From an uncultured archaeon (lineage in GTDB: Archaea; Altiarchaeota; Altiarchaeia; IMC4; QMZM01): a stretch of DNA of 15,702 bases. The notes below the pieces were generated by a model. That model worked only from the letters and a program-made list of their open reading frames with translations. It did not search any database and had not been told where the DNA came from. Shown piece by piece: positions 21 to 14,524 of this stretch (position 1 is the stretch's first letter; every line of letters starts with the position of its first letter). Position numbers and translations under genes: made by a program. The stretch is taken from the NCBI GenBank assembly GCA_964549685.1, contig CAZJVE010000018.1, forward strand, positions 1-15,702. The letters run 5' to 3'.

Positions 21-1397
21 CTACTTCCAGTTCTCCTTCAGGAAGCTGCCAATCATGGAGGAGTCCTGAGGTCCGATGATGACCTCCCAGCCTGTTGCAT
101 CTTCGATTGCCCCAGAGATTCTTGCAAGGACTCCCGGCACTATCAGCTTCTTGTGCTTCACCTTCTCTGCAACCTTGTTGTCCTTCAGCGCCTTCTTGAT
201 TGCGGAGGGGTTGAGCTTGTCGGCCGCGAGAGCAACGGTAACTGCAAGGCCCTCGGTATCGACGACGAGGAGGTAGCAGGGAAATTTCATGTTCTCCAGG
301 TCTCCTGCGACGTTGAAGTATGTCAGAGCAAAGTTCGATGTGACAAAGACGGGAGAATTCTCGTCCGGGGAATTTATTTCATATAGCTTCGGCTCTGTCG
401 ACGGCTCAACCCTTGGGTCGGTATAGATGTTCTGTTTCAAGACGACCGATGTCAGGAAGGACCATACCTCTGTTGAATGGAAGACGATGAGGCTTACGAA
501 GCGGTCAAGGAGCATGGCAACGAGGTTGGACTCGTAGAGGGCTGCCTGGGTTTCGTCCTTGGAGCTCTGCCAGACCGGGAGGGTGGAACCCATCAGGGGA
601 TAGCGAACCTCCCCGACCTTGTGGAGGGCTGCCTTCCTGAGCTGGGTGAGGTTGTCGAGGGTTCTGGCAAGTCCCGCGCCATTGGGCTCTATGCCCGGGT
701 CGAGGACAAGGTTCTTGAAGCCTGTTGCAGAGATATTGCCGGCTATGGTTCCCAACTCTGAGAGGTCGGTCGAGTGGACCGCCAGGGGGCAGTCGAATTT
801 CCTTGCTATGGCGAGCATCTTTTCCCAGTTCTTCGAGTTGGCTGCATAGAGGAGAGGTCTCCTGCCCTTAACGGCCTCCGCTCCTGCCTGCAGAACCTCC
901 GGGCTGAAGGAGCAGAGCACCAGGGGGCCCTTGAATTCCCCGGCAACTGTTTCAACGACCTTCTTGAATTTCCCGGCATCTCCAGAGGCGGCCCTTATTG
1001 AGATTCCATCGAGGCTCAGTTTTTCTCCGATTCTTTCGAATTCAAAATTATTTACCAAATCCACCCGGCTCTTGATTTCCTTATCATCCATCAAATCGCT
1101 GACGTCGAGCATTAGTGCCGTTGGATTGAAGAAGCGCAGCTCGTGGCGGTACATGACCTCCTCGCCGCCCAGTGTAAGTGCTGAGTCTCCCTTCCCCATC
1201 ACAACGTCCCTGACGGGAGGAGTTGTTGCCTCTACCAGCTTCTCCAGCTCTCCGGGCCCAAATTCCGGGCAGTCGGCGGGCTTCTTTTCCCTCTCAAGGA
1301 GCTTTATGGCGAAGGCCATGCAGGTGTCCTCACCGCATTTGGCGCAGTTCTTCTTTGGAAGATACCCGTAAACCTGAAGTGCCGTAAGCCTTTTCAT
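21..1397 (-). CDS. cdhE: ACDS gamma subunit (corrinoid Fe-S protein, large subunit)
   Basis: N-terminal LPKKNCAKCGEDTCMAFA...CP [4Fe-4S] motif; GGEEVMYRHE, NIYTDP and TSNFALTY motifs; 458 aa; ATGA overlap with cdhD. Confidence 0.97.
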   Translation of the reverse strand: MKRLTALQVYGYLPKKNCAKCGEDTCMAFAIKLLEREKKPADCPEFGPGELEKLVEATTPPVRDVVMGKGDSALTLGGEEVMYRHELRFFNPTALMLDVSDLMDDKEIKSRVDLVNNFEFERIGEKLSLDGISIRAASGDAGKFKKVVETVAGEFKGPLVLCSFSPEVLQAGAEAVKGRRPLLYAANSKNWEKMLAIARKFDCPLAVHSTDLSELGTIAGNISATGFKNLVLDPGIEPNGAGLARTLDNLTQLRKAALHKVGEVRYPLMGSTLPVWQSSKDETQAALYESNLVAMLLDRFVSLIVFHSTEVWSFLTSVVLKQNIYTDPRVEPSTEPKLYEINSPDENSPVFVTSNFALTYFNVAGDLENMKFPCYLLVVDTEGLAVTVALAADKLNPSAIKKALKDNKVAEKVKHKKLIVPGVLARISGAIEDATGWEVIIGPQDSSMIGSFLKENWK

Positions 1398-2542
1398 TTT
1401 GCCTTAATCCATGATTCGTAGTTGAATGGTTTGCCCTTCTTCGTGTCCGAGAAGAGGTAATCTGATATCTTCTCGACCGTTTCTATTGCGAGGGGGTGGA
1501 GCATCATGAAGAGGTCCGCTCCCGAGAGCAGTGCTGCGAGGGCGGTGTTGCCCTCCCATAATGGACCGCGGTATTCCCTGGAACCAATCTCGTCTTTGTC
1601 AATCCAGGCCTCTCTGGCGCTCCATGAGTTTGAGGTTGCTGAAACGATGGGCATCATCAGGTTTGCATCCCCTTTAAGGCCTGCCAGCCGGCACCTCTCC
1701 ATGGCCGATATTGAGTATTCGATTCCGTAGCCTACCCCGCCGGTAAAGAGGTCCATCACTATCTGCTCCTGTTTCAGGCCCTGCTTCATCAGATTCTTGT
1801 TGAGCCTTCTCATTTCATCGGGGTTCATTGAGACCAGCGAGAGGACTGAGTGTCCGTGCTCGACTGCAGCCTTTGCCACTCTTTTGTAGTCCATGTCCGG
1901 GTCGACTGTGGAGAGAAGGGCCTTCTCCTCGGCGCAGATTTCAGCGGCTTTTTCGAGAAGCTCCGGGTCTTTCTCGGGGTTTCCGGAGCCGCCGATTATG
2001 ACAGGGACCTTAACCTGCTGGATGAAGTCCTCTATAAGCTTGCATGACTCCTTTATGGGAGTGTCCTTGACAGTGGGGTCCGAGCTCACGAAATGCAGGG
2101 TAATCATCTGGGCGTTGAATTTCTTCACCCTGAATTTCGCCCACTCTATGGGGTCTTCCATCACGTCAGGGAAGTATTTTCTCACGTGGGTTGGCAGTGA
2201 AATGGGCATGTCAAAGACGTCCTGGGATATCAGAGGCCTGTTCGGGAACTTTCCCTCGAAGAAGTAGAATGGTGGGGCTGTCTGGCCGCCGATTTTATGG
2301 CTTATGGACCGGGTGCCGCCCTCTTTCTTTGTTGCGCCGAGCTGAACCTCGGCTATGGCGAATTTGTATTCGTCCTTGGAAGGAGAGAATTCAAAGTGGG
2401 TTAATTTTTTTTTTCCTTCCGCGCTTATGGGCTGGGAGATAATCTGCAGTTCCAGTTCTTCTGCCTCGAGGTCGAAGTTCTCAATCTCAAGCTCCTTGCT
2501 CTCTCCGAGGAGTTTCTTTAGTTTCTCTGTGAGTTCATCCAT
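1394..2542 (-). CDS. cdhD: ACDS delta subunit (corrinoid Fe-S protein, small subunit)
   Basis: GGSGNPEKDP, GYGIEYS, REAW, RGPLWE and GADLFMMLHP motifs; acidic N-terminal ELEIENFDLEAEELEL segment; located between cooC and cdhE. Confidence 0.96.
   Translation of the reverse strand: MDELTEKLKKLLGESKELEIENFDLEAEELELQIISQPISAEGKKKLTHFEFSPSKDEYKFAIAEVQLGATKKEGGTRSISHKIGGQTAPPFYFFEGKFPNRPLISQDVFDMPISLPTHVRKYFPDVMEDPIEWAKFRVKKFNAQMITLHFVSSDPTVKDTPIKESCKLIEDFIQQVKVPVIIGGSGNPEKDPELLEKAAEICAEEKALLSTVDPDMDYKRVAKAAVEHGHSVLSLVSMNPDEMRRLNKNLMKQGLKQEQIVMDLFTGGVGYGIEYSISAMERCRLAGLKGDANLMMPIVSATSNSWSAREAWIDKDEIGSREYRGPLWEGNTALAALLSGADLFMMLHPLAIETVEKISDYLFSDTKKGKPFNYESWIKAK
2405..2414 (-). repeat. A10 homopolymer (coding strand) in the cdhD N-terminal linker
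   Basis: T10 at 2405-2414 on the plus strand; coding strand reads GGA AAA AAA AAA TTA (GKKKL). Confidence 0.9.
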
Positions 2543-3296
2543 TCTTGGTTAATTTCGAAGCTATGTTTTCGGCCTCCTTGTAGGCCGGTGATTCCGGACT
2601 TATGCCCGTTATTGGCTTGCCCCTGAGGTCGAAATCGCTCACCTCTGGGTCGTCGGGAATCGAGCCGATTACCTCGATGCCGAGCTTCCCGGCCTCCTTT
2701 TCGAGTACGCCTTTGTTCTTGGAAGTAACTCTGTTGATTATTAGGTATAAGTTATTGAATGTTATATTGAGTTCACGGGTTAAATCCTTGATTCTCTTTG
2801 CCGTGTCCAGCCCTTTCTTTGATGCGTCGCTTATCACAAGGAGTGAGTCGACGTTCTCTGTGGTCCTCCGGGACAGGTGCTCAAGACCGGCCTCGGCGTC
2901 TATCACTATGTAGTCGTAGGACTTTGTGATGTTGTCCACAATCTCCCGGAGCATATGATTTATGGCACAGTAGCACCCCTGCCCCTCTGGCCTGCCCATA
3001 ACAAGCAAATCGAAGTTGTCTGTCTCGACGGTAATCTCAAAGACCTTTGCGTCGAGGTATTTCTTCTTCTCAACCCCGGGGGATGGCTTCTCTCGGAGCA
3101 TGTCCTCCCGTATATCCCCAACGGTCTTCTGGAATTCAACACCGAGGGATTCCGCAAGATTTGAGTCGGGGTCGGCATCTATTGCAAGGATTGATTTCCC
3201 CGGCTGCGAGTCACCCAGTATCCTTATCAGCAGGGCGGAAAGCAGGGTTTTCCCGACTCCACCCTTGCCGGTTACCGCTATTGTTTTGCCTTTCAA
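2535..3296 (-). CDS. cooC: CooC/AcsF-family nickel-insertion ATPase (ACS-associated type)
   Basis: Deviant Walker A GKGGVGKT, IDADPDSNL, GQGCYC Ni-binding CxC, DAEAGLEHLSR; TTG start overlaps the upstream small-ORF stop (TTGA). Confidence 0.93.
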   Translation of the reverse strand: MKGKTIAVTGKGGVGKTLLSALLIRILGDSQPGKSILAIDADPDSNLAESLGVEFQKTVGDIREDMLREKPSPGVEKKKYLDAKVFEITVETDNFDLLVMGRPEGQGCYCAINHMLREIVDNITKSYDYIVIDAEAGLEHLSRRTTENVDSLLVISDASKKGLDTAKRIKDLTRELNITFNNLYLIINRVTSKNKGVLEKEAGKLGIEVIGSIPDDPEVSDFDLRGKPITGISPESPAYKEAENIASKLTKNG

Positions 3297-3469
3297 TGTG
3301 CTCTCTTGATTATAACCTTCTCCGCGTAGACCTTTGCGTTCTTGAGGATTATGGTTATTCCCCCTGCGGTTGACTCGATATCCCCTGCCATGGCCGGCTC
3401 CGCGCCTTTGCCCTTAATCTTCAGCTTCAACGGCTTCTTGATGTTCAGCTTCAGTGGTTTCTTTTCCAT
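3293..3469 (-). CDS. 58-aa basic protein carrying the detached CdhC C-terminal motif (absent from the ORF track)
   Basis: Hand translation: MEKKPLKLNIKKPLKLKIKGKGAEPAMAGDIESTAGGITIILKNAKVYAEKVIIKRAH*. It fills the cdhC-cooC gap exactly: ATG 2 nt after the cdhC TAA, TGA overlapping the cooC TTG. GGITIILKNAKVYAEKVIIKR resembles the C-terminus of archaeal CdhC proteins. Confidence 0.85.
   Translation of the reverse strand: MEKKPLKLNIKKPLKLKIKGKGAEPAMAGDIESTAGGITIILKNAKVYAEKVIIKRAH
3416..3463 (-). repeat. Imperfect 24-nt tandem duplication (KKPLKLNI / KKPLKLKI)
   Basis: AAGAAACCACTGAAGCTGAACATC followed by AAGAAGCCGTTGAAGCTGAAGATT; differences are mostly synonymous. Confidence 0.85.
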
Positions 3470-3471
3470 TT

Positions 3472-4836
3472 TTATCCGAGAACTCCATCCTCCTGGAGTT
3501 TCTCTATTATCTTCATCAGCTCATCCTCGGTTATGCCCAAATCCTTGGACGCCTCATCAGGATATATCTCACCGTCCTTTTCCTGTATGTAGCTTATTAC
3601 CTTATCCCTAAGGTCATCGCCCTTGGCGCCCCACCTCTCAACCACCGGGTGTCCCTTCTCCTGCAGGAATTTCTTGAGTTCGTCGAGATTCGTGACTTCC
3701 TTTTCCGTTGCAATCTTGTCATAGACGTCTTTCGGGACCGCTTCCTTGACCCTCTCCTTTATGTGGGAGGGGAGCCATACTATCCTATCCCAGCCACCCT
3801 CGGCATTAAAGAATTTTGCCGATTGCATCCACTCGACTCCGAAGCCCAGGAATCCCTCTGCCTGTTCCCCGCCGCCTGTCTGGGTCGCCATGGCGGAGAA
3901 TTTAAGGCCGTTGACTGCAGCTTCATTGTAATTCCGGTCCACTATACCTATACCCTCAACCTCCGGGATGAAGAATGCTATGGCTTCAAAACAGCCGCAG
4001 CTCGTATGGGGGTAGCCGAACATGGAGTACATGAAGAAGCGGTCGTTAGCGCCGTTTGTGGCCTTCTTTATTGCCTCATTCACTCCTGAGTATTCGCCGG
4101 TCTTCTCGTCCAGCAATTCCCCCTTATCAACGGCAAAGTTCGGACCGTCCGGGTCTACGTTTGCTGCTGCCCTGGCATCAATCCAGGATATGGAGCCGCA
4201 TAGAGAGACTCTCTGAGGGGATATGACGCAGACGTGGTTCGGCGCAAAGGACTGGCATAGAGTGCATGCGTAGAACACATCAACATCCTCGTCCTTCATT
4301 CCTCTCACTCTCTTGTCCCTCTCCTCGTAAATCTTTACGGCCATGTCGTGATGCTCCTTGACCTTGGCCTCGTCTGTCATGAAGGTTATCTGGCTCTTCT
4401 CGATGAATGGAAACGCGGTCTTGAATAGATTCAGAATAGCCGTTCCAATATGCTCGAAGGTAAGGCCCTTCTCCTTCGCGTCCTTGCTTACCCTGCACCA
4501 GATGTCATATCTCTGGTTGAGGTGCATGAAACCCTGGATATAGTTGAGGAAGTCGTGAACCCTTCTCTCGATAACCCCTTCCAGTTCCTTCTCGACCTTC
4601 CCGCCGTAAATGTCTACGAGAATTCCAAAGGACGACCTGTCCCCCTCGCCGAATTCCGGGATGTCCTTCCCTAGGACAATTACCTTTCCGTCCTCAATCT
4701 CGTCTGCCTTCCTTACCTGCACCAGTTCCGCCTTGTATTTGACCTTTGGTCCTCCAAGCTCAAGGAACATGTCAGGGCCTCTAATTCTTTCACCTTCGTG
4801 TACGATTCCTACCTCTACCGGAATTTTGTCTGTCAT
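3472..4836 (-). CDS. cdhC: ACDS beta subunit (acetyl-CoA synthase) with an atypical C-terminal winged-helix-like domain
   Basis: EGERIR, ERRVHDFLNY, A-cluster motifs CTLCQSFAPNHVC and HTSCGCFE, GGWDRIVW; GGAGG Shine-Dalgarno upstream; ATGA overlap with cdhA. Confidence 0.97.
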   Translation of the reverse strand: MTDKIPVEVGIVHEGERIRGPDMFLELGGPKVKYKAELVQVRKADEIEDGKVIVLGKDIPEFGEGDRSSFGILVDIYGGKVEKELEGVIERRVHDFLNYIQGFMHLNQRYDIWCRVSKDAKEKGLTFEHIGTAILNLFKTAFPFIEKSQITFMTDEAKVKEHHDMAVKIYEERDKRVRGMKDEDVDVFYACTLCQSFAPNHVCVISPQRVSLCGSISWIDARAAANVDPDGPNFAVDKGELLDEKTGEYSGVNEAIKKATNGANDRFFMYSMFGYPHTSCGCFEAIAFFIPEVEGIGIVDRNYNEAAVNGLKFSAMATQTGGGEQAEGFLGFGVEWMQSAKFFNAEGGWDRIVWLPSHIKERVKEAVPKDVYDKIATEKEVTNLDELKKFLQEKGHPVVERWGAKGDDLRDKVISYIQEKDGEIYPDEASKDLGITEDELMKIIEKLQEDGVLG

Positions 4837-7166
4837 TTTTTGCCTCCGCTTAATCTTCTAACGAGTGTTGGGTCGGGCGTCTTCTCGACCGGCTTCCAGC
4901 CCTGTTTACTCAAGACGTCCATTAACTCCTCCTTTTGTGTTAGAGGGATGTCTGCCTCGGTCCTTACGAATCTGTGCAAATCCTCCGGCAGCTTTCCGTG
5001 AACCTTTTTATGCAAGTCGATGTAGTGGGCCAGCTTTATCTGCCTTCCCTTGAAACCGTCCGATGCCCTTAAACAGAGCTTTGGAACCAGCATCATAACC
5101 TCCTCCTTTGTCTTGGCGACATAGCTGAGATGCTCCGGGACGGGACCGACATCGTACTTTCCTTCGCCCCTTGTGTCGAAGACGCCCCAGTCCGTATTCT
5201 CATCACTTAGAAGCTCCCTCCTGTATTTGATTCCCGAGGGGCCCCAGATGACGGGAATTCCAAGGCGCATGACTCCGGCCCCTATAGAAACTGCCTTCTG
5301 GGAGTAGGTTCCCCAGACAAGTCCCACTGCTCCGAGCCTGTTCAGGATGTAGTCTGCAATCTCCTCGAAGTTCTCCCTGAGGGGCCTCTTTGCGAATATG
5401 TTTGCGACCTTCATTGCAGCTCCTGTAATGTGGGAGTTGGCAACGCATGAGCCCACGTTTACTAGGTTCCCTGCATTGAATTCTCCCCCGTATTTTTCAT
5501 AGAGGTTGTGAGCAGGACCTGAGTAATCGGTTGCGAGGGCCATGGCGGAGCATCCTGAAGTAGTAACAATATAATTCCTTTTCAGGAACTCCTCGACTAT
5601 TTCGCCGAGTTCCTTTCCTCCGTGAGGCCATAGCGAACAGCCGACCGGAGCCAGAATCCCTGGAATCTCACCAAAGACTACCGGGGCTCCGACGTTTCTG
5701 ATTTCGACATCCTGAATTGCTCCTCTTCCCGGGCTTATCTTTGCCTTGTCGTTCTCGAATCTCTTCTTGTAGACGGCTGAGTAGGCAGAGGTAATCTCAA
5801 TCTTCTTCGGGCACCAAGACTCGCACCTTCCGCAGAATACGCAGGTTCCAATGACATCAAGGAGCTTGTCCTTGGGGATTATCTCGGGCTTCTTCTTTTC
5901 CTTGCCTCCCGCCTTTGGCTCTATGCCGTTGAAGTGCTTGTTGATGCTTGCGACTATGCTCGTGACATTTAAGCCAACCGGACATGCCTGCGAACAGAGG
6001 CCGCAGCTTATGCAGTCCTTTGCGGAATCAAGGCCGTCCTCGGGCTTCTTCTTGCCCCTCTTCTTTACACCGATGGCAGTCTTTACAGCAATCTCTCCGA
6101 GCTTATCCAGATCTGGGATGAAGCATCCGTCAATCTCCCCGGAAACGAGTTTCTTGACGACCTCCTCGGGGTCCTCCTTCGAAAGGTCAGGGAACCCACC
6201 AGCATTCTTTTCAGATACGGTTATTACAGGTATTCCGAGTTTCTTTGCATTCTCTGCAGTGTCAAGCCTGATACACTGCGCGTCAAGGACTATGACATCA
6301 GCAATGCCGGAGCGAACGAACGGGAGCTGATAGGAGAGCTGGCCGACTATCTTCGACTTGGTGTCGTACCTACCCATATCAAGGGCAGTGCAGCAGATTC
6401 CCGCAATCTCGACGTCCTTTTTGTTATCGTTTGCATAGTCGATTATCTCAACGCCTCCAGCGACGTTGTGGCCGATGCAGAGAACTACGGGCTTTTCCTT
6501 GTTTACTGAGCCAAAGCCAATCTCCACGAGCTCGGGATTTGGGTCACCTTTGGGAAAACCAAGTGCAGCAACCTGTGCGATGTCTGCTATCTCCATACCA
6601 AGGTGGTCTACCATGCCTGCATGTAGGGCCTTGGAATTGAAGTCTATATCGCTTGACTCCTGGCCCATGTGCAGTGCAGCCGATAGGTGGGTTAGTTGCT
6701 CCTCGACATAGTCAAGGCCCTCTTCAAGGTCTGACAATGTCTCCGGCCTTTTCCCAATAAGCGTTCTGAACCATGGGGCCTCAACCTCGGTATTCTCAAC
6801 GTGAAATACCTCCTTGTTCCTGCCGAATTTCTCCATCATCCTGTCGAGGATGTGCCTTGCGTGGGCCGTATGGCAGGCTGAGCCGGTAATTGACAGAAAG
6901 AGGTTCTCCCGGGCCATCTGCTTGTCCAGTGTTATGCCGCAGGAGCCTCTCCTGTTGGCAGACAGGTCGCAGGGCCCATATGCGCAGAACTGGCACTGCT
7001 TTATGAAGGCGTGGTACTTGGGCTTGTATCTATTTAGCAATGTATGGTCCCACTCCCTCAAATGGGTAACGGATGGCTTCTTATCCGGGCCCTTCTTCTC
7101 CGTCCATTCATCCTCCTCCTCGACTTCACCTATGTCTATTCTGACATTTTTACCTTTGATTCTCAT
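4833..7166 (-). CDS. cdhA: ACDS alpha subunit (archaeal Ni-CO dehydrogenase)
   Basis: LREWD; B-cluster C58/C61/C66/C76; CHTAH; C-cluster ligands in GHN, ICC, AQC, VGC, GCSA and GSC; two ferredoxin motifs CISCGLCSQAC and CVFCGRCESWC; YSQKA; C-terminal PDPT. Confidence 0.97.
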   Translation of the reverse strand: MRIKGKNVRIDIGEVEEEDEWTEKKGPDKKPSVTHLREWDHTLLNRYKPKYHAFIKQCQFCAYGPCDLSANRRGSCGITLDKQMARENLFLSITGSACHTAHARHILDRMMEKFGRNKEVFHVENTEVEAPWFRTLIGKRPETLSDLEEGLDYVEEQLTHLSAALHMGQESSDIDFNSKALHAGMVDHLGMEIADIAQVAALGFPKGDPNPELVEIGFGSVNKEKPVVLCIGHNVAGGVEIIDYANDNKKDVEIAGICCTALDMGRYDTKSKIVGQLSYQLPFVRSGIADVIVLDAQCIRLDTAENAKKLGIPVITVSEKNAGGFPDLSKEDPEEVVKKLVSGEIDGCFIPDLDKLGEIAVKTAIGVKKRGKKKPEDGLDSAKDCISCGLCSQACPVGLNVTSIVASINKHFNGIEPKAGGKEKKKPEIIPKDKLLDVIGTCVFCGRCESWCPKKIEITSAYSAVYKKRFENDKAKISPGRGAIQDVEIRNVGAPVVFGEIPGILAPVGCSLWPHGGKELGEIVEEFLKRNYIVTTSGCSAMALATDYSGPAHNLYEKYGGEFNAGNLVNVGSCVANSHITGAAMKVANIFAKRPLRENFEEIADYILNRLGAVGLVWGTYSQKAVSIGAGVMRLGIPVIWGPSGIKYRRELLSDENTDWGVFDTRGEGKYDVGPVPEHLSYVAKTKEEVMMLVPKLCLRASDGFKGRQIKLAHYIDLHKKVHGKLPEDLHRFVRTEADIPLTQKEELMDVLSKQGWKPVEKTPDPTLVRRLSGGKK

Positions 7167-7238: not shown

Positions 7239-7976
7239 TTATTTGATGTTTTTTAGCAGTTTATCTGCTAATTCGTCTACGGATTTTTGAAATTCATCGG
7301 ATTCCAATTCGCTTTCCCGGTCCATGGAGGATTTCATCACGGCAGATGAGAAGGGGAGTGCATGGAAAATATCGAATTTCCCGGCTAGATGTTCCAGCTG
7401 CTCTTCATCGACCTTGTTTGCTATGACGTAGGACTTTTCTATCTCTAAATCCCTGGAGAATTCCAGCAGCTTCTTTGTTACGGAGATAGAGCCGAGATTG
7501 GGCTCAGTGACAGCTATAATTGCATCGATGCCGCGAAGAGTGCCCCTGCTCATTATCTCGAGTCCGGCTTCCATGTCCAAGATTACGATTTCGTTTCTCT
7601 GAAGGACCAGCTCCTGCATCAGTGCCTTGAGGAGGGAATTTTCGGGGCAGAGGCAACCGGAGCCAGCCCTGCTCACTCCCCCCAGCAGAAGCAGCTTCAG
7701 GTTCTCTGCTATTGACGCAGAGTATTCGTCAATGAGGTCATGCACATCTGGGTTCAGATTGACAAGAACATCAGATATTCTTGCCCTCTTGTCAACAAGC
7801 TCCTTGATGGAGCCTATGGGCTTCTGGTCTTCATGCCCAAAGTAGGAGGCGAGGTTGAGACTGGAGTCTGCATCAACCGCAATAACATTTAGATTCTTCC
7901 TGGCGTAGATTCTGGAGAGATGGAATGCAAGGGTTGTCTTCCCGGTGCCGCCTTTGCCGGTTACTGCTATTTTCAT
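7239..7976 (-). CDS. cooC: Second CooC-family nickel-insertion ATPase (CODH-associated type)
   Basis: MKIAVTGKGGTGKTT, VDADSSLNL, GSGCLCPE, DMEAGLE. Start moved to ATG 7976, which gives an ATGA overlap with the mch stop. Confidence 0.9.
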   Translation of the reverse strand: MKIAVTGKGGTGKTTLAFHLSRIYARKNLNVIAVDADSSLNLASYFGHEDQKPIGSIKELVDKRARISDVLVNLNPDVHDLIDEYSASIAENLKLLLLGGVSRAGSGCLCPENSLLKALMQELVLQRNEIVILDMEAGLEIMSRGTLRGIDAIIAVTEPNLGSISVTKKLLEFSRDLEIEKSYVIANKVDEEQLEHLAGKFDIFHALPFSSAVMKSSMDRESELESDEFQKSVDELADKLLKNIK

Positions 7977-8845
7977 ATTAGCCTGTTCAGGAGTTCGTTG
8001 TTTACGCATCCAACACGGTAGTCGTTCCCCTCAAAGGATATGTGAAGCTTGGCCGGGGCAAATATTTCCGGGTCTATCTTGAAGAAGTCCCCTCCCGCTT
8101 CATTGAATATCTCTTCAAAACTCCTGCCATAGAATTTCGATGCCTGGGATACTGAAACCTCTGTGAGCTCCGGGTCCCAGTCATTGACTTCAATCCTCAC
8201 CGAGCTGCCGTAGATTATTGCATCGTTTGAGGTAAACATAATCCTGTCGTCGAGCTTTGGTATCGGAGCAGTCCCCTCGGCGGAGATTATCTGGTTCGTG
8301 TCATAGCCCAGATTGTCAAGCCTGAACAAGGCCATCTCAACGACCCTTGCCATTATGTTGACGAGGCCCACCTCGGAATTGCCCCTGAAGGCGGCAATTA
8401 TCAGTTCCTTTGCCCCCGTCTCTTCCAGGATGTAGTTACAGGTTTTTTCATCGGGGAGAACGGATGTCTCGATTGCGATTGCGGCCTTGTCGGATTTTTC
8501 ATGGTAAGCAATCCTGTCAATGATGTCCGAGGGCTTTTTTGCCAGAATTCTTGCAGGACCGGAGCCCAGCTTGTTCTTGCCCCCAATAGGAATCGCCCAA
8601 CCAGCGAGCTGGCAGCTCAGGCATGCAACGGATGGTTTCTCAGGGATAGTGACATGGATTTTGGTATCCTCAAGCCGGGCCTCCCCGAGAGAGCCCATGG
8701 TGACCTGCGCAACCTTGATTGCGGCCTCTTTGCCAGCGTCTTTATTAATTCCAAGGTCAAGGACTCTGGCGTTGCCGTATTCCGTTACTTCTGCAACACC
8801 CTCAAGCTCCTTGAGAATCCCGTAGCATTTTTTGTTAAGGTTCAT
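7973..8845 (-). CDS. mch: Methenyltetrahydromethanopterin cyclohydrolase (compact, divergent)
   Basis: CQLAGW, GSGPARILA, ARVVE, NDAIIYG and FNEAGGDFFKIDPEIFAPA motifs. Confidence 0.92.
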   Translation of the reverse strand: MNLNKKCYGILKELEGVAEVTEYGNARVLDLGINKDAGKEAAIKVAQVTMGSLGEARLEDTKIHVTIPEKPSVACLSCQLAGWAIPIGGKNKLGSGPARILAKKPSDIIDRIAYHEKSDKAAIAIETSVLPDEKTCNYILEETGAKELIIAAFRGNSEVGLVNIMARVVEMALFRLDNLGYDTNQIISAEGTAPIPKLDDRIMFTSNDAIIYGSSVRIEVNDWDPELTEVSVSQASKFYGRSFEEIFNEAGGDFFKIDPEIFAPAKLHISFEGNDYRVGCVNNELLNRLI

Positions 8846-9904: not shown

Positions 9905-10903
9905 TTAGCATACTCTCGGAACCGGGTCGCCGGACGGCTTTTCGAGGTGCCTTTTTCCGCCTATGACGGTCTCCATGATTACTCCCTTGCCCTTCTCGAC
10001 CTCCCCGATAATCTCCGCCTCCTTTCCAAGGGGGTTCTTTCTCAGTCTCTGGAGAGCCTTTTCTGCGTCCTCTTTTGCAACGCCTATCAAGACCTTGCCC
10101 TCGTTTGCTACTGTGAGGGGGTCGATGCCCAGCATTTCCGACGCTGATTTTACCTCCTCCCTGACAGGGATTCTGTCCTCGTGAACGAGAATTCTATTAC
10201 CTGACTTATCGGCCATCTCGTTGAGGGCGTTGGCAATTCCTCCCCTGGTTGGGTCCTTCATGGCATGGATGTTGAGGCCCAGTATTTCATTAACCAGTTT
10301 CCAGAGCGCTGCGCAGTCCGACTCCAGGGGTGTGTCGAACTCGATGCCCTTTCTCTTTGACATGATTGCCATGCCGTGGTCTCCCACGGTGCCTGAGACT
10401 ATGATTCTGTCACCTTCCTGAAGTCCGGAGTTCCTTATGACTCTCTCAGCGATTCCAATGCCAGTAGTGTTTATCAGCATGTCAATGTCGGAGTCTATTA
10501 CTTTCGTGTCTCCTGTCACGACGGGCAGGGAATTCTCTTTTGAGATTCTATTTATTGATTTAACAATTTTTTCAATCTTCTCTATCTCGAATCCTTCCCC
10601 CATGATAAATGCAGTTGAGATTGCAACGGGCTTTGCTCCCATAACAGCCAGGTCGTTTATAGTGCCCGCTATGGACAGCTTGCCTATATCTCCTCCAGGA
10701 AAAAAGAGCGGCTTCACTGTGTAGGAGTCTGTTGTGAAAACAAGATTCTTTCCTTCCAGCGGAATGACTGCGGAGTCCTCGAATTCGTCCAGGCCGACTC
10801 CGTCTTTGACCTTCCTCAGCTCTACCGCTGATAAAACCCGGGAGAGGAGCTTCTCCATCGCCTCTCCGCCGCCGCCGTGAACCGACTTTATGTAGTCCTC
10901 CAT
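9905..10903 (-). CDS. hypE: Hydrogenase maturation carbamoyl dehydratase
   Basis: HGGGG, TTDSYTV.PLFFPGGDIG, GDTKV, KDPTRGG, ANEGK and C-terminal PRVC. Confidence 0.97.
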   Translation of the reverse strand: MEDYIKSVHGGGGEAMEKLLSRVLSAVELRKVKDGVGLDEFEDSAVIPLEGKNLVFTTDSYTVKPLFFPGGDIGKLSIAGTINDLAVMGAKPVAISTAFIMGEGFEIEKIEKIVKSINRISKENSLPVVTGDTKVIDSDIDMLINTTGIGIAERVIRNSGLQEGDRIIVSGTVGDHGMAIMSKRKGIEFDTPLESDCAALWKLVNEILGLNIHAMKDPTRGGIANALNEMADKSGNRILVHEDRIPVREEVKSASEMLGIDPLTVANEGKVLIGVAKEDAEKALQRLRKNPLGKEAEIIGEVEKGKGVIMETVIGGKRHLEKPSGDPVPRVC

Positions 10904-10920
10904 TTTGATAAGATAGGTAA

Positions 10921-13185
10921 TCAGCCATAAAATGCCGAGAAATAGGCCTGCCCCAGGGAAATCCCTCCGTCCCCGGGGGGAATTTGATTATGCTGTATGA
11001 ATTTTAAATCGGAATCATTTACGACGTCTGATGCCTTTTTGACAATAACGTTATTGTAAGCAACTCCACCGGAAATTCCAATGAATTCTACCCCCCTCCT
11101 TTTTGCTTCCTTCACAGCGATATTTGTCAGGCCCTCTGCGATTGCGGCCTCAGCTGAAAATGCTATGTCAGCAGTCATTTTGCCTTCCTCCTTCAGGGAG
11201 AGGACATGAACAAGGATTCCGGTCGTGTCCAGGACGCCGTCCTTTATGGATATTGGGAAGTCGAGCTGCTTTCCCTTATTTCCTGCCGAGTCGAGCTTCA
11301 TAGCCGGCTCCCCGTCGTAGCTCCTGTAGTTGCAGAGACCGAGGACTGCGGAGACGGAGTCCAGAACCCTGCCCGTCGATGTCGTAAGGGGAACATTGAC
11401 GTCCTTCTCCAGCTGCTGGAGGACGACGTCGATTTCCTTCTCACCGTGCTTGAAATTCAGATTGTTTTTAATTGCAATTTTTTTCAACTCATCATTAGAA
11501 TAGGTTTCAGAAAGAATTCCCAAAACCATTCTTCCGGGATAGTAGGCAGCGAGGTCGCCGCCTGGCATCCTCTGCTCCTTCAGATGTCCGGTTCTGGTGA
11601 ATTCCCCGTCTTTGCAGGAGATGATTTCGCCGCCCCATGTGTTGCCGTCCTCTCCATAACCGGCGCCATCGCAGCAGATTCCAACCATGCTGTCGGCTCC
11701 GGACTCGGCCATCAGCGATGCCAGATGGGAGTAATGGTGCTGCACCCTCACGAGGGGGACGTTGAATTCCTTGGCGAGAGTTTCTGCGAGCTTCGTTGTA
11801 TGGAATTTTGGATGTAAATCACAGGCTATCCTGTCCGGCTTTGAGGTCGTGATTTCCAGGAGGTGCCTTGCTGAGTTCTCCAGGAACTCCACGGTGTCGG
11901 GGCTGTCCGTGTCTCCGATGAACTGGGTGAGGAATGCTCTGTTCCCCTTGAGGAGGCACACCGTAACATTCTCCTCCGCTCCCAGGGAGAGGATTTTCTC
12001 CTTTGATTCTTTTTTGATAGAGATGGGCAGTGGCACAAATCCTCTGCTTCGCCTTATGAACGTCCCAATATTGTTTACACTTTTGATAACAGAATCATCA
12101 CAGCGGTTCTCTATCCGGAGGTTGTGGAGGAGGCAGTAGTCTGCGATTTTTGATTCCGCAGCCTCTTCGTTGTCGATGAACATCGGCTCCCCGGGCAGGT
12201 TTGCCGAGGTCATGACGAGGGGCTCTTTGAGGCCCTGAAAGAGGATTTCATGCAGCCCTGTGTATGGCAGCATGACTCCGATGGTGTCAAGGCCGGGAGC
12301 CAGGTTTTGAGATAGGGAGAATTCCTTTTTCTTCTTTAGAACAATGATGGGTCTCTCTTTGGAGAGGAGTAATTTTTTCTCCTTTTCAGATATTTCTGCG
12401 AATTCTTCCACCATGGCGAGCGTGGCCATTATCGCGAATGGCCGCTGCGGCCGGTTGAGCCTGCGCCGGAGCTCTTCGATGGCTGCATCGTCGGTGGTGC
12501 TGCATGCAAGGTGCATGCCGCCGATGCCTTTTATGATTAGGATTCTTCCATTTTTCAGGAAGTTTATGGAAGTCTCAATGGGGTCCGGAATTCTTTTTCC
12601 TTCATCATCAATCAAAAAATAATCCGGGCCGCATTTCTCGCAGGCTATTGTCTGGGCGTGGAACCTCCTGTCCTCCGGGCTGGAGTATTCTCCCTCGCAT
12701 TCCCTACATGGCGGGAACTCAGCAAAGGCCGTATTCTGCCGGTCGTATGGAATCCCCCGGATTGTCGTGAATCTGGGGCCGCAGTCAGTGCAGGTCGTGA
12801 AGGGATAGTTGTGTCTCCTGTTTTTGCTGTCGAGAATGTCATCGATGCAGCGGGGGCATACTGAGATGTCGGCGGGCGTTATGCCCTCGATGCCCTTGCC
12901 ACCGGACTTTATTATTTTGAAATCATCAAAATTCCCCGGCGAATTCTTCCACTCTATTTTGATATCGTCTATCCTGGAATTCGCTGGCTTTTCCTTTTTT
13001 AGAATATCTATGAATCTCAGTATGTCCTTTTTGCTGCCCTCCAGCTGCACCTCGACCCCGGCGTCGCCGAGGTTCCTGACCCAGCCGGGCAGTCCGATTT
13101 TCTTTGCAGTCCTGTAGACGAAGGGTCGGAAGCCGACTCCCTGGACAACGCCCGAAATCCTGATTATTGATAAGTGCTGCCGCAT
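10921..13185 (-). CDS. hypF: Hydrogenase maturation carbamoyltransferase
   Basis: Acylphosphatase-like GVVQGVGFRPF, two zinc fingers (CPRC..CTDC, CREC..CEKC), KGIGG, TSAN, QHHYSH and GDGGISLGQ. Confidence 0.97.
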   Translation of the reverse strand: MRQHLSIIRISGVVQGVGFRPFVYRTAKKIGLPGWVRNLGDAGVEVQLEGSKKDILRFIDILKKEKPANSRIDDIKIEWKNSPGNFDDFKIIKSGGKGIEGITPADISVCPRCIDDILDSKNRRHNYPFTTCTDCGPRFTTIRGIPYDRQNTAFAEFPPCRECEGEYSSPEDRRFHAQTIACEKCGPDYFLIDDEGKRIPDPIETSINFLKNGRILIIKGIGGMHLACSTTDDAAIEELRRRLNRPQRPFAIMATLAMVEEFAEISEKEKKLLLSKERPIIVLKKKKEFSLSQNLAPGLDTIGVMLPYTGLHEILFQGLKEPLVMTSANLPGEPMFIDNEEAAESKIADYCLLHNLRIENRCDDSVIKSVNNIGTFIRRSRGFVPLPISIKKESKEKILSLGAEENVTVCLLKGNRAFLTQFIGDTDSPDTVEFLENSARHLLEITTSKPDRIACDLHPKFHTTKLAETLAKEFNVPLVRVQHHYSHLASLMAESGADSMVGICCDGAGYGEDGNTWGGEIISCKDGEFTRTGHLKEQRMPGGDLAAYYPGRMVLGILSETYSNDELKKIAIKNNLNFKHGEKEIDVVLQQLEKDVNVPLTTSTGRVLDSVSAVLGLCNYRSYDGEPAMKLDSAGNKGKQLDFPISIKDGVLDTTGILVHVLSLKEEGKMTADIAFSAEAAIAEGLTNIAVKEAKRRGVEFIGISGGVAYNNVIVKKASDVVNDSDLKFIQHNQIPPGDGGISLGQAYFSAFYG

Positions 13186-13195
13186 TTTTCTGCAT

Positions 13196-13222
13196 TGATT
13201 ACTCTATATTATAGAGTATTCA
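13196..13222. promoter_or_regulatory. Palindromic operator and/or shared promoter between divergent hypF and hypC
   Basis: TGAtTACTCTATA-T-TATAGAGTAtTCA: perfect 9-1-9 core at 13200-13218, 12 of 13 pairs overall, with TATATTATA at its centre. Confidence 0.7.
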
Positions 13223-13236
13223 GGGGTAAAATCAGG

Positions 13237-13461
13237 ATGTGTCTAGCAATTCCGGCAAAGATTCTGAAGATAAACGGGAATTCAGCAGAGGTGGACTTCG
13301 GAGGGGTTAAAAGAGAGGTGAAGCTTGACCTCGTCGATGCGGAAGAGGGGGACTGGGTCATTGTGCATACCGGTTATGCCATACAGATTATGAGCGAGGA
13401 AGATGCCAAAGAGACGCTCAAATACTTTGAGGATATTCTAAAACTGCAGGATGATAACTGA
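13237..13461 (+). CDS. hypC: Hydrogenase maturation chaperone
   Basis: MCLAIPAK N-terminus (Cys2) fixes the start at 13237; GDWVIVHTGYA motif; 74 aa. Confidence 0.95.
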   Translation: MCLAIPAKILKINGNSAEVDFGGVKREVKLDLVDAEEGDWVIVHTGYAIQIMSEEDAKETLKYFEDILKLQDDN

Positions 13462-14524
13462 GTTCAGGGACAGGGAAACGGCAAAGAAGGCGTGCGACAG
13501 GATTAAGGAGATTGCCAAGAACCTCGACCATGCCAAGATTATGCACGTCTGCGGCACCCACGAAGATACGATAACCAGATATGGGATTCGTTCCCTGCTG
13601 CCTGAGAACGTTGAGGTTATATCAGGGCCGGGGTGCCCTGTTTGTGTGACAACTGGAAGGGAGATAGACGAGGCCATTGCTCTGGCTGATAAGGGGCTTA
13701 CTGTTACAACCTTTGGAGACATGCTCAAGGTCCCAGGGAGCGAGGATTCGTTGGAGGGCGTGAAGGCGAAGGGCGGCGATGTAAGAGTAGTATATTCGAT
13801 TACCGACGCAGCGAGGATTGCTGCGGAGAACCCTGAGAAGGAGGTCGTGCATATCGCAATCGGGTTTGAGACGACTGCCCCCTCGACGGCTGCCGAGCTG
13901 AAGACGGCACCAGGGAATTTCTCCGTGCTTTGCTGCCACAGGACAATCCCGAATGCCATGGACCTGCTCCTCAGTTCTGGAGATGTAAAGGTAAACGGCT
14001 TCATAGACCCGGGCCATGTTTCAGCGATAATAGGTTTAGGGCCCTACAGGCCCCTGACTGAGAAATTCAACGTGCCCCAGGTTATAGCGGGCTTCGAGCC
14101 GCTGGATGTGCTCTTGGGGATTCTTCTCATACTTGAGATGTTGAGGGAAGGTAAAGCAGAGGTGAAAAACGAATATTCAAGGGTTGTCAGGGATGAAGGA
14201 AATCCGAAGGCCCTGAGGATTATGGGTGAAGTGTTTGAACCGTGTGATGTCAGGTGGAGAGGATTCCCCATAATTCCTGGTTCTGGTCTTGAATTGAAAG
14301 AAGAATTCTCACAATATGACGCAAGAAAGAAATTCAATATCAAGGTAGAGGATAAGGGAGAGCCCGCAGGCTGCAGATGCGGAGACATCCTGAAGGGGCT
14401 GATACGGCCTGATGAGTGCCCTATCTTTGGAAAGGGGTGCGCCCCCGATAAACCGGTTGGGCCCTGCATGGTCTCAAGCGAGGGGGCCTGCGCCATAGCG
14501 TATAAATTCAATAAAAATGCATGA
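13451..14524 (+). CDS. hypD: Hydrogenase maturation Fe-S scaffold
   Basis: HVCGTHE, GPGCPVC, GFETT, PGHVS and GPCMVSSEGAC motifs. Confidence 0.97.
   Translation: MITEFRDRETAKKACDRIKEIAKNLDHAKIMHVCGTHEDTITRYGIRSLLPENVEVISGPGCPVCVTTGREIDEAIALADKGLTVTTFGDMLKVPGSEDSLEGVKAKGGDVRVVYSITDAARIAAENPEKEVVHIAIGFETTAPSTAAELKTAPGNFSVLCCHRTIPNAMDLLLSSGDVKVNGFIDPGHVSAIIGLGPYRPLTEKFNVPQVIAGFEPLDVLLGILLILEMLREGKAEVKNEYSRVVRDEGNPKALRIMGEVFEPCDVRWRGFPIIPGSGLELKEEFSQYDARKKFNIKVEDKGEPAGCRCGDILKGLIRPDECPIFGKGCAPDKPVGPCMVSSEGACAIAYKFNKNA

Follow-up and report, generated by a model that had tools for sequence, protein, structure and literature searches.

A stand-alone gene for the CdhC tail and a paired C-terminal domain on CdhC in an archaeal cdh operon

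Archaeal ACDS complexes are assemblies of roughly 2 MDa. In the cdh operon studied here, a short open reading frame lies between cdhC and cooC, and an earlier note on the same DNA read it as the C-terminal tail of the beta subunit CdhC, encoded as a protein of its own. The question raised by this locus is whether the beta subunit is really split or whether the split is merely apparent, and, if it is real, how a separately made tail could still serve the complex. The window, i.e., the whole stretch of 15,702 nucleotides that was analysed, is the entire 15.7-kb contig of its source genome (G000; 1.17 Mb in 27 contigs, 85% completeness), in which cdhC occurs once and the small ORF has a single significant copy. 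The features of the operon are collected in Table 1.

The small gene and its relationship to the CdhC tail

Table 1. Features of the cdh operon, with positions as in the window
Feature	Position	Strand	Evidence
cdhE	21..1397	(-)	
cdhD, with conserved acidic N-terminal segment	1394..2542	(-)	
cooC-type P-loop ATPase gene, TTG start	2535..3296	(-)	
Small gene for a putative stand-alone CdhC-tail protein, 58 aa	3293..3469, stop codon included	(-)	ATG start, homologues, profile match, dN/dS
Tail motif of the small protein, residues 36-55, homologous by alignment to the C-terminus of fused CdhC	3305..3364	(-)	Alignment, profiles
Weakly conserved linker of the small protein, residues 20-35, including M27	3365..3412	(-)	Orthologue alignment
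Basic repeat of the small protein, residues 3-19, Leu/Ile alternating with Lys, Pro before each half	3413..3463	(-)	Family consensus KPLKLxIKKPLKL
Junction: cdhC stop TAA at 3472-3474, 2-nt spacer, small-gene ATG at 3467-3469	3467..3474	(-)	Sequence; contigs cross without gaps
cdhC, 454 aa, acetyl-CoA synthase core (PF03598, PF19436) without tail	3472..4836	(-)	Domain matches, profiles
Acidic three-helix domain of CdhC, predicted as winged-helix-like without wing, residues about 405-454	3475..3624	(-)	Models, charge, Foldseek
cdhA, 777 aa, cdhC directly after	4833..7166	(-)	

The small ORF was described earlier as tightly coupled to both of its neighbours, and this description holds. Its start lies 2 nt past the cdhC stop, and its TGA shares 4 nt (3293-3296) with the TTG start of cooC. 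In one contig of a related strain (X5), 3 bases within 3295-3299, i.e., in the overlap between the small-gene stop and the cooC start, were skipped in-frame.

Stand-alone homologues were found in relatives with E-values of 1.7e-31 to 1.7e-6, and a search of public proteins gave 19 stand-alone small proteins of 58-78 aa at E <= 0.01 (26 candidates). The family is conserved at both ends, in the N-terminal basic repeat as well as in the tail, and invariant residues occur in both modules. The window protein is a single copy in which the Pro-containing basic motif is duplicated, and the net charge of its first 22 residues is +8. The median dN/dS of the small gene was 0.19, as calculated from the 19 of 66 pairs with 0 < dS < 3, the remaining 47 being saturated or undefined. 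Judged by these substitution ratios, the small gene has been kept by purifying selection, and, as far as sequence comparison goes, the ORF is confirmed as a genuine gene, beyond chance. A shorter form starting at the internal ATG (M27), which was also suggested earlier, is rejected because M27 is not conserved; among the 12 aligned orthologues it is confined to the window's genus, and it lies downstream of a conserved N-terminal motif.

A Pfam scan of the small protein returned no family, and a PDB sequence search returned no match at E <= 10. The ESM Atlas gave no usable match. A word-index search for longer proteins gave none at E <= 0.01 among 83 candidates, which is weak evidence. One protein of 506 aa (P0100), which shares a 90% cluster with a small protein, proved to be unrelated.

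The relationship to the CdhC tail emerged from two NCBI profiles of CdhC. The CdhC of the window covers positions 1-410 of the 464 positions of NF003379, in agreement with the earlier claim that this protein lacks the usual tail, and residues 27-57 of the small protein cover positions 430-460 of the same profile (E = 7.1e-5). Similarly, the small protein matches positions 435-460 of the 460 positions of TIGR00316 (E = 8.2e-4). Both matches are below the whole-protein cut-offs of these profiles, as expected of a fragment. When used as a query, the small ORF also matched the ends of CdhC frames of 468-505 aa in three relatives (G026, G031, and G022), with which it is alignable too. Alignment of the peptide to CdhC C-termini had been proposed as a check, and similarity was found both in the profiles and in the fused CdhCs of relatives; by this comparison, residues from about 27 to 57 of the small protein are homologous to the CdhC C-terminus.

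A scan for the tail pattern was run over 185,579 species genomes, and the best 80 of 165 relatives were kept. Among the 87 complete CdhC ORFs collected, 71 carried a terminal tail motif, 3 carried a diverged tail, and 13 ended in another domain without a tail; the domain and a fused tail occurred together in none of the 87. Fused CdhCs ending in the tail motif were found in records of Methanobacterium, Methanospirillum, Methanocella, Hydrothermarchaeales, Bathyarchaeota, and Asgard. The basic N-terminal motif is conserved among the small proteins and absent from the fused tails. The tail is not a covalent part of the beta subunit here; in 12 of 12 genomes its ORF stands apart and starts at an ATG of its own. 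The profile and alignment matches, together with the intact ORF in all 12, support the earlier view that the beta subunit is split and that its tail, preceded by a new Lys-rich N-terminus, would be a protein of its own.

The earlier note went too far in describing the tail as implicated in oligomerisation. A role has been proposed in passages of a 2026 preprint (PMC13370988), in which the CdhC extension would hold ACS to a CdhD-centred scaffold with the CdhA N-terminus, but the same passages state that biochemical data on this region are lacking. In passages of PMC11474084, the canonical CdhC extension is described as disordered and unresolved in cryo-EM.

Occurrence of the split in two phyla

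CdhC was present in 18 of the 61 genomes of the window's phylum. In 12 of these 18 it ended in a domain like that of the window's CdhC, with the small gene directly downstream in every case, and the order cdhA-cdhC-small-cooC-cdhD-cdhE was found wherever the contig reached. Related genomes had been suggested earlier as a place to look for a conserved separate ORF in the cdhC-cooC interval, or for its disruption; all 12 genomes with the same CdhC ending have such an ORF, and it is intact in each. CdhC was not found in the other 43 genomes of the phylum, including G002 of the same genus (85% complete), and the pathway is apparently patchy or the bins are incomplete.

A split of this kind could be caused by an assembly or sequencing frameshift, the true gene being a fused cdhC with a false stop arising from the A-run at the junction. 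The junction does fall within five consecutive A, and relative to cdhC the small ORF occupies the -1 frame, which is open for just 17 codons upstream of the ATG. However, the split is kept in 12 genomes of several families with differing junction sequences, frames, and spacers; the reading frame of the small gene relative to that of cdhC is -1, 0, or +1 depending on the genome, and the spacers measure 1 to about 17 nt. Moreover, a complete conserved domain closes CdhC right before the stop, and the same layout occurs at 20 more loci in another phylum. An indel that would fuse the ORF to cdhC, as considered in the earlier note, was not listed in the contigs of three other runs (X2 record 11, X3 record 14, and X5 record 20), which span position 3470 with 0 gaps; one of the three is possibly the run of the source sample. 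A frameshift of this origin is thus regarded as extremely improbable.

The split would also be merely apparent if recoding, by a programmed frameshift or by stop read-through, yielded a fused CdhC-tail protein. The 2-nt gap and the -1 frame in the window are compatible with this, and so is G006, where the small gene is in frame past one stop. On the other hand, the frames and spacers vary as described, several junctions have their own GGAGG (7-9 nt ahead of the ATG in 3 of the 10 junctions displayed), no conserved slippery site was seen, and both the ATG and the N-terminal motif are conserved. This variation of frames and spacers between genomes excludes a sequencing error common to all of them as well as a conserved recoding site, and a fused product made by recoding is considered highly unlikely.

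The domain-ended CdhC and the split tail co-occur in the 12 genomes of the window's phylum and also at 20 of 20 loci in a second phylum. The latter is that of G061; it was reached via L040 (labelled Halobacteriota) and sampled with 401 genomes, of which 265 have CdhC and 23 a domain-ended CdhC. A downstream tail gene is present at all 20 loci examined, intact at 19 and frameshifted at one (L171). In L171 the small gene is frameshifted inside the Pro/Thr-rich linker as compared with the intact, near-identical P0039, which could be either an assembly error or a pseudogene. This frameshifted copy would fit the idea that the small gene is a functionless remnant of a broken cdhC 3' end, still decaying. 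However, such a remnant would hardly be intact in 12 of 12 genomes and at 19 of 20 loci in two phyla, with a dN/dS of 0.19 and invariant residues in both modules, and this explanation can practically be dismissed. Two tandem tail genes, with the same basic N-terminus and different tails, were found at 9 of the 20 loci (L173-L177, L179, and L181-L183), and therefore the ratio of tail protein to CdhC need not be 1:1.

Further forms came from a profile search of 1.84 billion representatives, which gave 72 matches, mostly stand-alone proteins or C-terminal fragments; among them were additional stand-alone forms with one basic motif and an Ala/Pro-rich linker. A fusion of domain, basic motif, and tail, of roughly 520 aa, was not among these 72 matches, a list that is no census because full-length fused CdhCs are also missing from it. 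In a protein of 3288 aa (P0023), residues 94-117 match the tail profile with 70.8 bits. On a metagenome contig (L168), a CdhC of Methanosarcinales-like type has the same domain at its end, and a tail gene for 71 aa comes next. Proteins identical to the small proteins are annotated as 'hypothetical protein' at NCBI and as 'CO dehydrogenase/acetyl-CoA synthase beta subunit' at JGI, under the organism labels Methanothrix, Ca. Methanoliparum thermophilum, Ca. Methanolliviera, Methanocellales MAGs, and 'Methanosarcinales archaeon Met12'. In a Methanobacteriaceae MAG (L051), an ORF of 73 aa has a terminal tail and an acidic linker without the basic motif; in this long-read assembly it is probably a fused cdhC broken by a frameshift.

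Trees were built on the CdhC core domain alone, after removal of the terminal domain and the tail. In them, the 18 CdhCs from the window's phylum grouped in one supported clade, within which the split forms fell into two groups beside fused forms. The domain/split trait required 3 changes on a quick IQ-TREE tree (87 rows) and at least 4 on a FastTree tree (106 rows). In two sequences of the second phylum (L187 and L189), the core grouped with a fused, Methanocellales-labelled CdhC, and the terminal domain and small protein were of the window type. From this placement, the terminal domain and the small gene seem to behave as one adjacent module that is moved between cdh operons or lost from them. 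The co-occurrence of domain and split could therefore reflect the descent of one adjacent piece of DNA and not a functional need, and the change counts on these sequence trees would fit module transfer as well as repeated selection.

The terminal domain of CdhC and the other subunits

The core of the window's CdhC is a regular acetyl-CoA synthase, with matches to PF03598 (E = 6.7e-60), PF19436 (E = 3.1e-87), and 9c0s_E (E = 6.5e-160), and with the Cys-Gly-Cys motif of the A-cluster (C280, G281, and C282) invariant. It ends at a conserved His-Pro near residue 397 and is followed by a conserved domain of about 47 residues. According to the structure models, the split CdhC has gained a C-terminal helix-turn-helix-like domain, which was overlooked by the earlier reading and always accompanies the split. 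In the AlphaFold2 model of the full-length protein (pLDDT 70.5), helices are predicted at 407-419, 426-432, and 437-449, without strands, and a model of the domain only, from 26 sequences (pLDDT 76), has the same three helices and again no strands. The beta-hairpin that would form a wing after helix 3 is absent from both models, and the protein stops about 5 residues past this helix.

Foldseek comparison of the domain with the PDB gave TM-scores of about 0.7 to Zalpha, Lrp/AsnC, and 2xvc_A at 1.2-1.4 A, with a best E-value of only 0.19. Of the sub-cut-off Pfam matches, NirdL-like_HTH reached 19.6 bits against a cut-off of 27 in the window's CdhC and HTH_Mga 17.2 against 23; these families match 11 and 9 of 14 members, respectively, all below the cut-offs, and the NCBIfam matches of the domain to LrpA and CdvB are below them as well. 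The fold class rests on the TM-scores of a 57-residue model with pLDDT 76, because the Foldseek E-values are 0.19 or higher and the Pfam helix-turn-helix matches are below gathering scores. A search with the C-terminal region of CdhC found just 3 proteins, of 454-458 aa.

In all 26 sequences compared, the domain is acidic (net charge -4 to -11), and it has no basic DNA-binding surface. In the small proteins, residues 1-22 have a net charge of +1 to +10 (23 of 23). The linker of the fused type (n = 56) measures 46 aa at the median, with a median charge of -9; the domain is alike in length and charge, and therefore it replaces a segment of like size and charge. The weak matches to helix-turn-helix families of transcription factors, taken with the Lys-rich peptide, might suggest that domain and peptide form a regulatory pair that binds nucleic acid and regulates the cdh operon. 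The negative charge of the domain in every sequence and the lack of a wing in the models are not in concordance with this, and the other half of the small protein is an ACDS tail, so that a regulatory pair appears very improbable. In a two-chain prediction of CdhC 398-454 with the small protein, ipSAE was 0.02 and 0.01 against a mark of 0.32, the partner's own fold being uncertain.

With respect to the rest of the operon, the epsilon gene cdhB is absent between cdhA and cdhC in every operon read in the phylum, and PF02552 is nowhere above cut-off in G000 (a genome 85% complete). The N-terminal segments of CdhD and CdhA are conserved in split and fused genomes. Those of CdhD are strongly acidic in both types alike, and the CdhD motif of fused-type genomes is the same. 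CdhA is variable in its Fe-S insert; the window's CdhA is without some 83 residues with extra Fe-S motifs that are present in G013 (CdhA variation was seen at 4833-7166 of the window, 1251-3830 of L156, 1530-4070 of L163, and 6874-9426 of L165). The CdhAs of G049 and G031 have a helix-turn-helix-like insert near residues 432-476 (TrmB, 24.3 bits, slightly under cut-off), which does not track the split because G031 has a fused CdhC. Upstream of cdhA, another CooC-like P-loop ATPase, which shares 34% identity with the cooC product of the operon, and a methenyl-H4MPT cyclohydrolase (PF02289) are encoded at 7239-8009 (-) and 7973-8845 (-), and hypE-, hypF-, and hypD-like genes lie at 9905-14524.

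A possible detachable tether and comparable systems

Based on the results of this study, the small gene is probably a translationally coupled gene of the cdh operon, and its product a separately made CdhC tail of 58 residues, a putative ACDS subunit with a tether role. As an extra subunit, the small protein would take over with its tail the role proposed for the fused tail, holding ACS at the terminal regions of CdhD and CdhA in the core of the complex. Its N-terminus looks strand-like because hydrophobic residues and Lys alternate and are preceded by Pro, and this basic strand-like segment would re-attach the protein non-covalently to the acidic domain on CdhC; the tether would therefore be detachable. 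Docking of the basic N-terminus on the CdhC domain, possibly as the missing wing by analogy with the E3B peptide of CdvA on CdvB, is put forward tentatively as one possibility. The acidic N-terminus of CdhD is an equally plausible partner of the basic segment.

As the main alternative, the tail might act without binding CdhC, as a cap, an assembly factor, or a competitor at the site of the CdhD/CdhA core, with ACS untethered or held by the new domain alone. The conservation of the tail would be compatible with this, as would the acidic CdhD N-termini of split and fused genomes, which could bind the basic N-terminus, and the loci with two different tail genes per cdhC. However, the basic N-terminal motif occurs only where CdhC carries the acidic domain, whereas the CdhD motif is the same in fused-type genomes, and the completion of a wing-less winged helix by a partner peptide, as described in passages on 2xvc (PMC12909875), fits the CdhC domain. 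A free tail of this kind is considered rather unlikely.

If the tether reading is extended to all the lineages concerned, a second widespread ACDS architecture could be envisaged in parts of the Altiarchaeota, Methanothrix, Methanoliparia, and some Methanocellales-labelled MAGs. The small protein would act there as a detachable adaptor between ACS and the core of the complex: its basic N-terminal strand or strands would fill in the wing-less winged helix, in the manner of CdvA on CdvB, and its tail would plug into the CdhD/CdhA termini, with tail dosage as a separate variable. This full scheme is possible but doubtful, and the suggestion of the earlier note that the split allows tail stoichiometry or docking to be regulated is speculation.

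Methanothrix is a major acetate-splitting methanogen, and Ca. Methanoliparum degrades alkanes. Since identical small proteins are recorded under both names, the variant is not a curiosity of one uncultured lineage. The CO dehydrogenase of Methanothrix was historically purified without the full five-subunit complex, which the detachable-adaptor architecture, if true, could explain.

The tail is known as a sequence element. In the literature searched, which for PMC13370988 and PMC11474084 covers passages of the main text, no paper connects CdhC with a tail that is split off, with a small protein, or with a helix-turn-helix domain, and within this scope the split, the basic N-terminus, and the domain paired with it on CdhC are undescribed. 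The split isolates the tail as a protein of 56-74 residues, which makes the tether proposal in the passages of PMC13370988 directly testable, and it points to a specific candidate for a docking domain on CdhC. Moreover, clades are scored by presence or absence of the CdhC extension in the phylogeny given in the same passages. Such phylogenies would be affected because a domain-ended CdhC would be counted as tail-less, although the tail is encoded next door.

Among the closest known counterparts is the canonical CdhC extension (residues 398-472 in M. thermophila, PDB 9c0s/9c0t, and 401-470 in M. acetivorans), of which the last 20-30 residues are homologous by alignment to the small protein. The tail is at the same position in both, past an acidic segment of about 46 residues, and has the same place in the operon before cooC. 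In contrast to the canonical extension, the tail here forms a polypeptide of its own, with a start codon and, at the N-terminus, a basic repeat, and a domain predicted to fold into three helices replaces the acidic linker on CdhC. The best structural matches to this domain are the winged helices of Lrp/AsnC and Zalpha (TM 0.67-0.73, rmsd 1.2-1.4 A); unlike them, the CdhC domain is acidic, has no wing hairpin, is terminal on a metabolic enzyme, and falls under every family cut-off.

The 'broken' winged helix of CdvB (2xvc_A; Foldseek TM 0.69/0.70 over 45 columns, rank 9) is likewise a C-terminal, three-helix, winged-helix-like domain with an incomplete wing, and in passages of PMC12909875 it is completed by the CdvA E3B peptide (PDB 2xvc). 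The weak NCBIfam matches of CdvB to the CdhC domain region (E = 0.075 and 0.0074, far below cut-off) and a Foldseek E-value of 0.41 amount to no significant sequence relationship. CdvB belongs to a different cellular system, and completion by a peptide at CdhC is a proposal by analogy. As for the split itself, passages of PMC4975002 describe gene fissions in Altiarchaeales, namely of pheT and diphthamide synthase, and do not mention cdhC. Those fissions occurred in the same lineage, lie between domains, and have both halves conserved, whereas the split of cdhC is also found outside that lineage.
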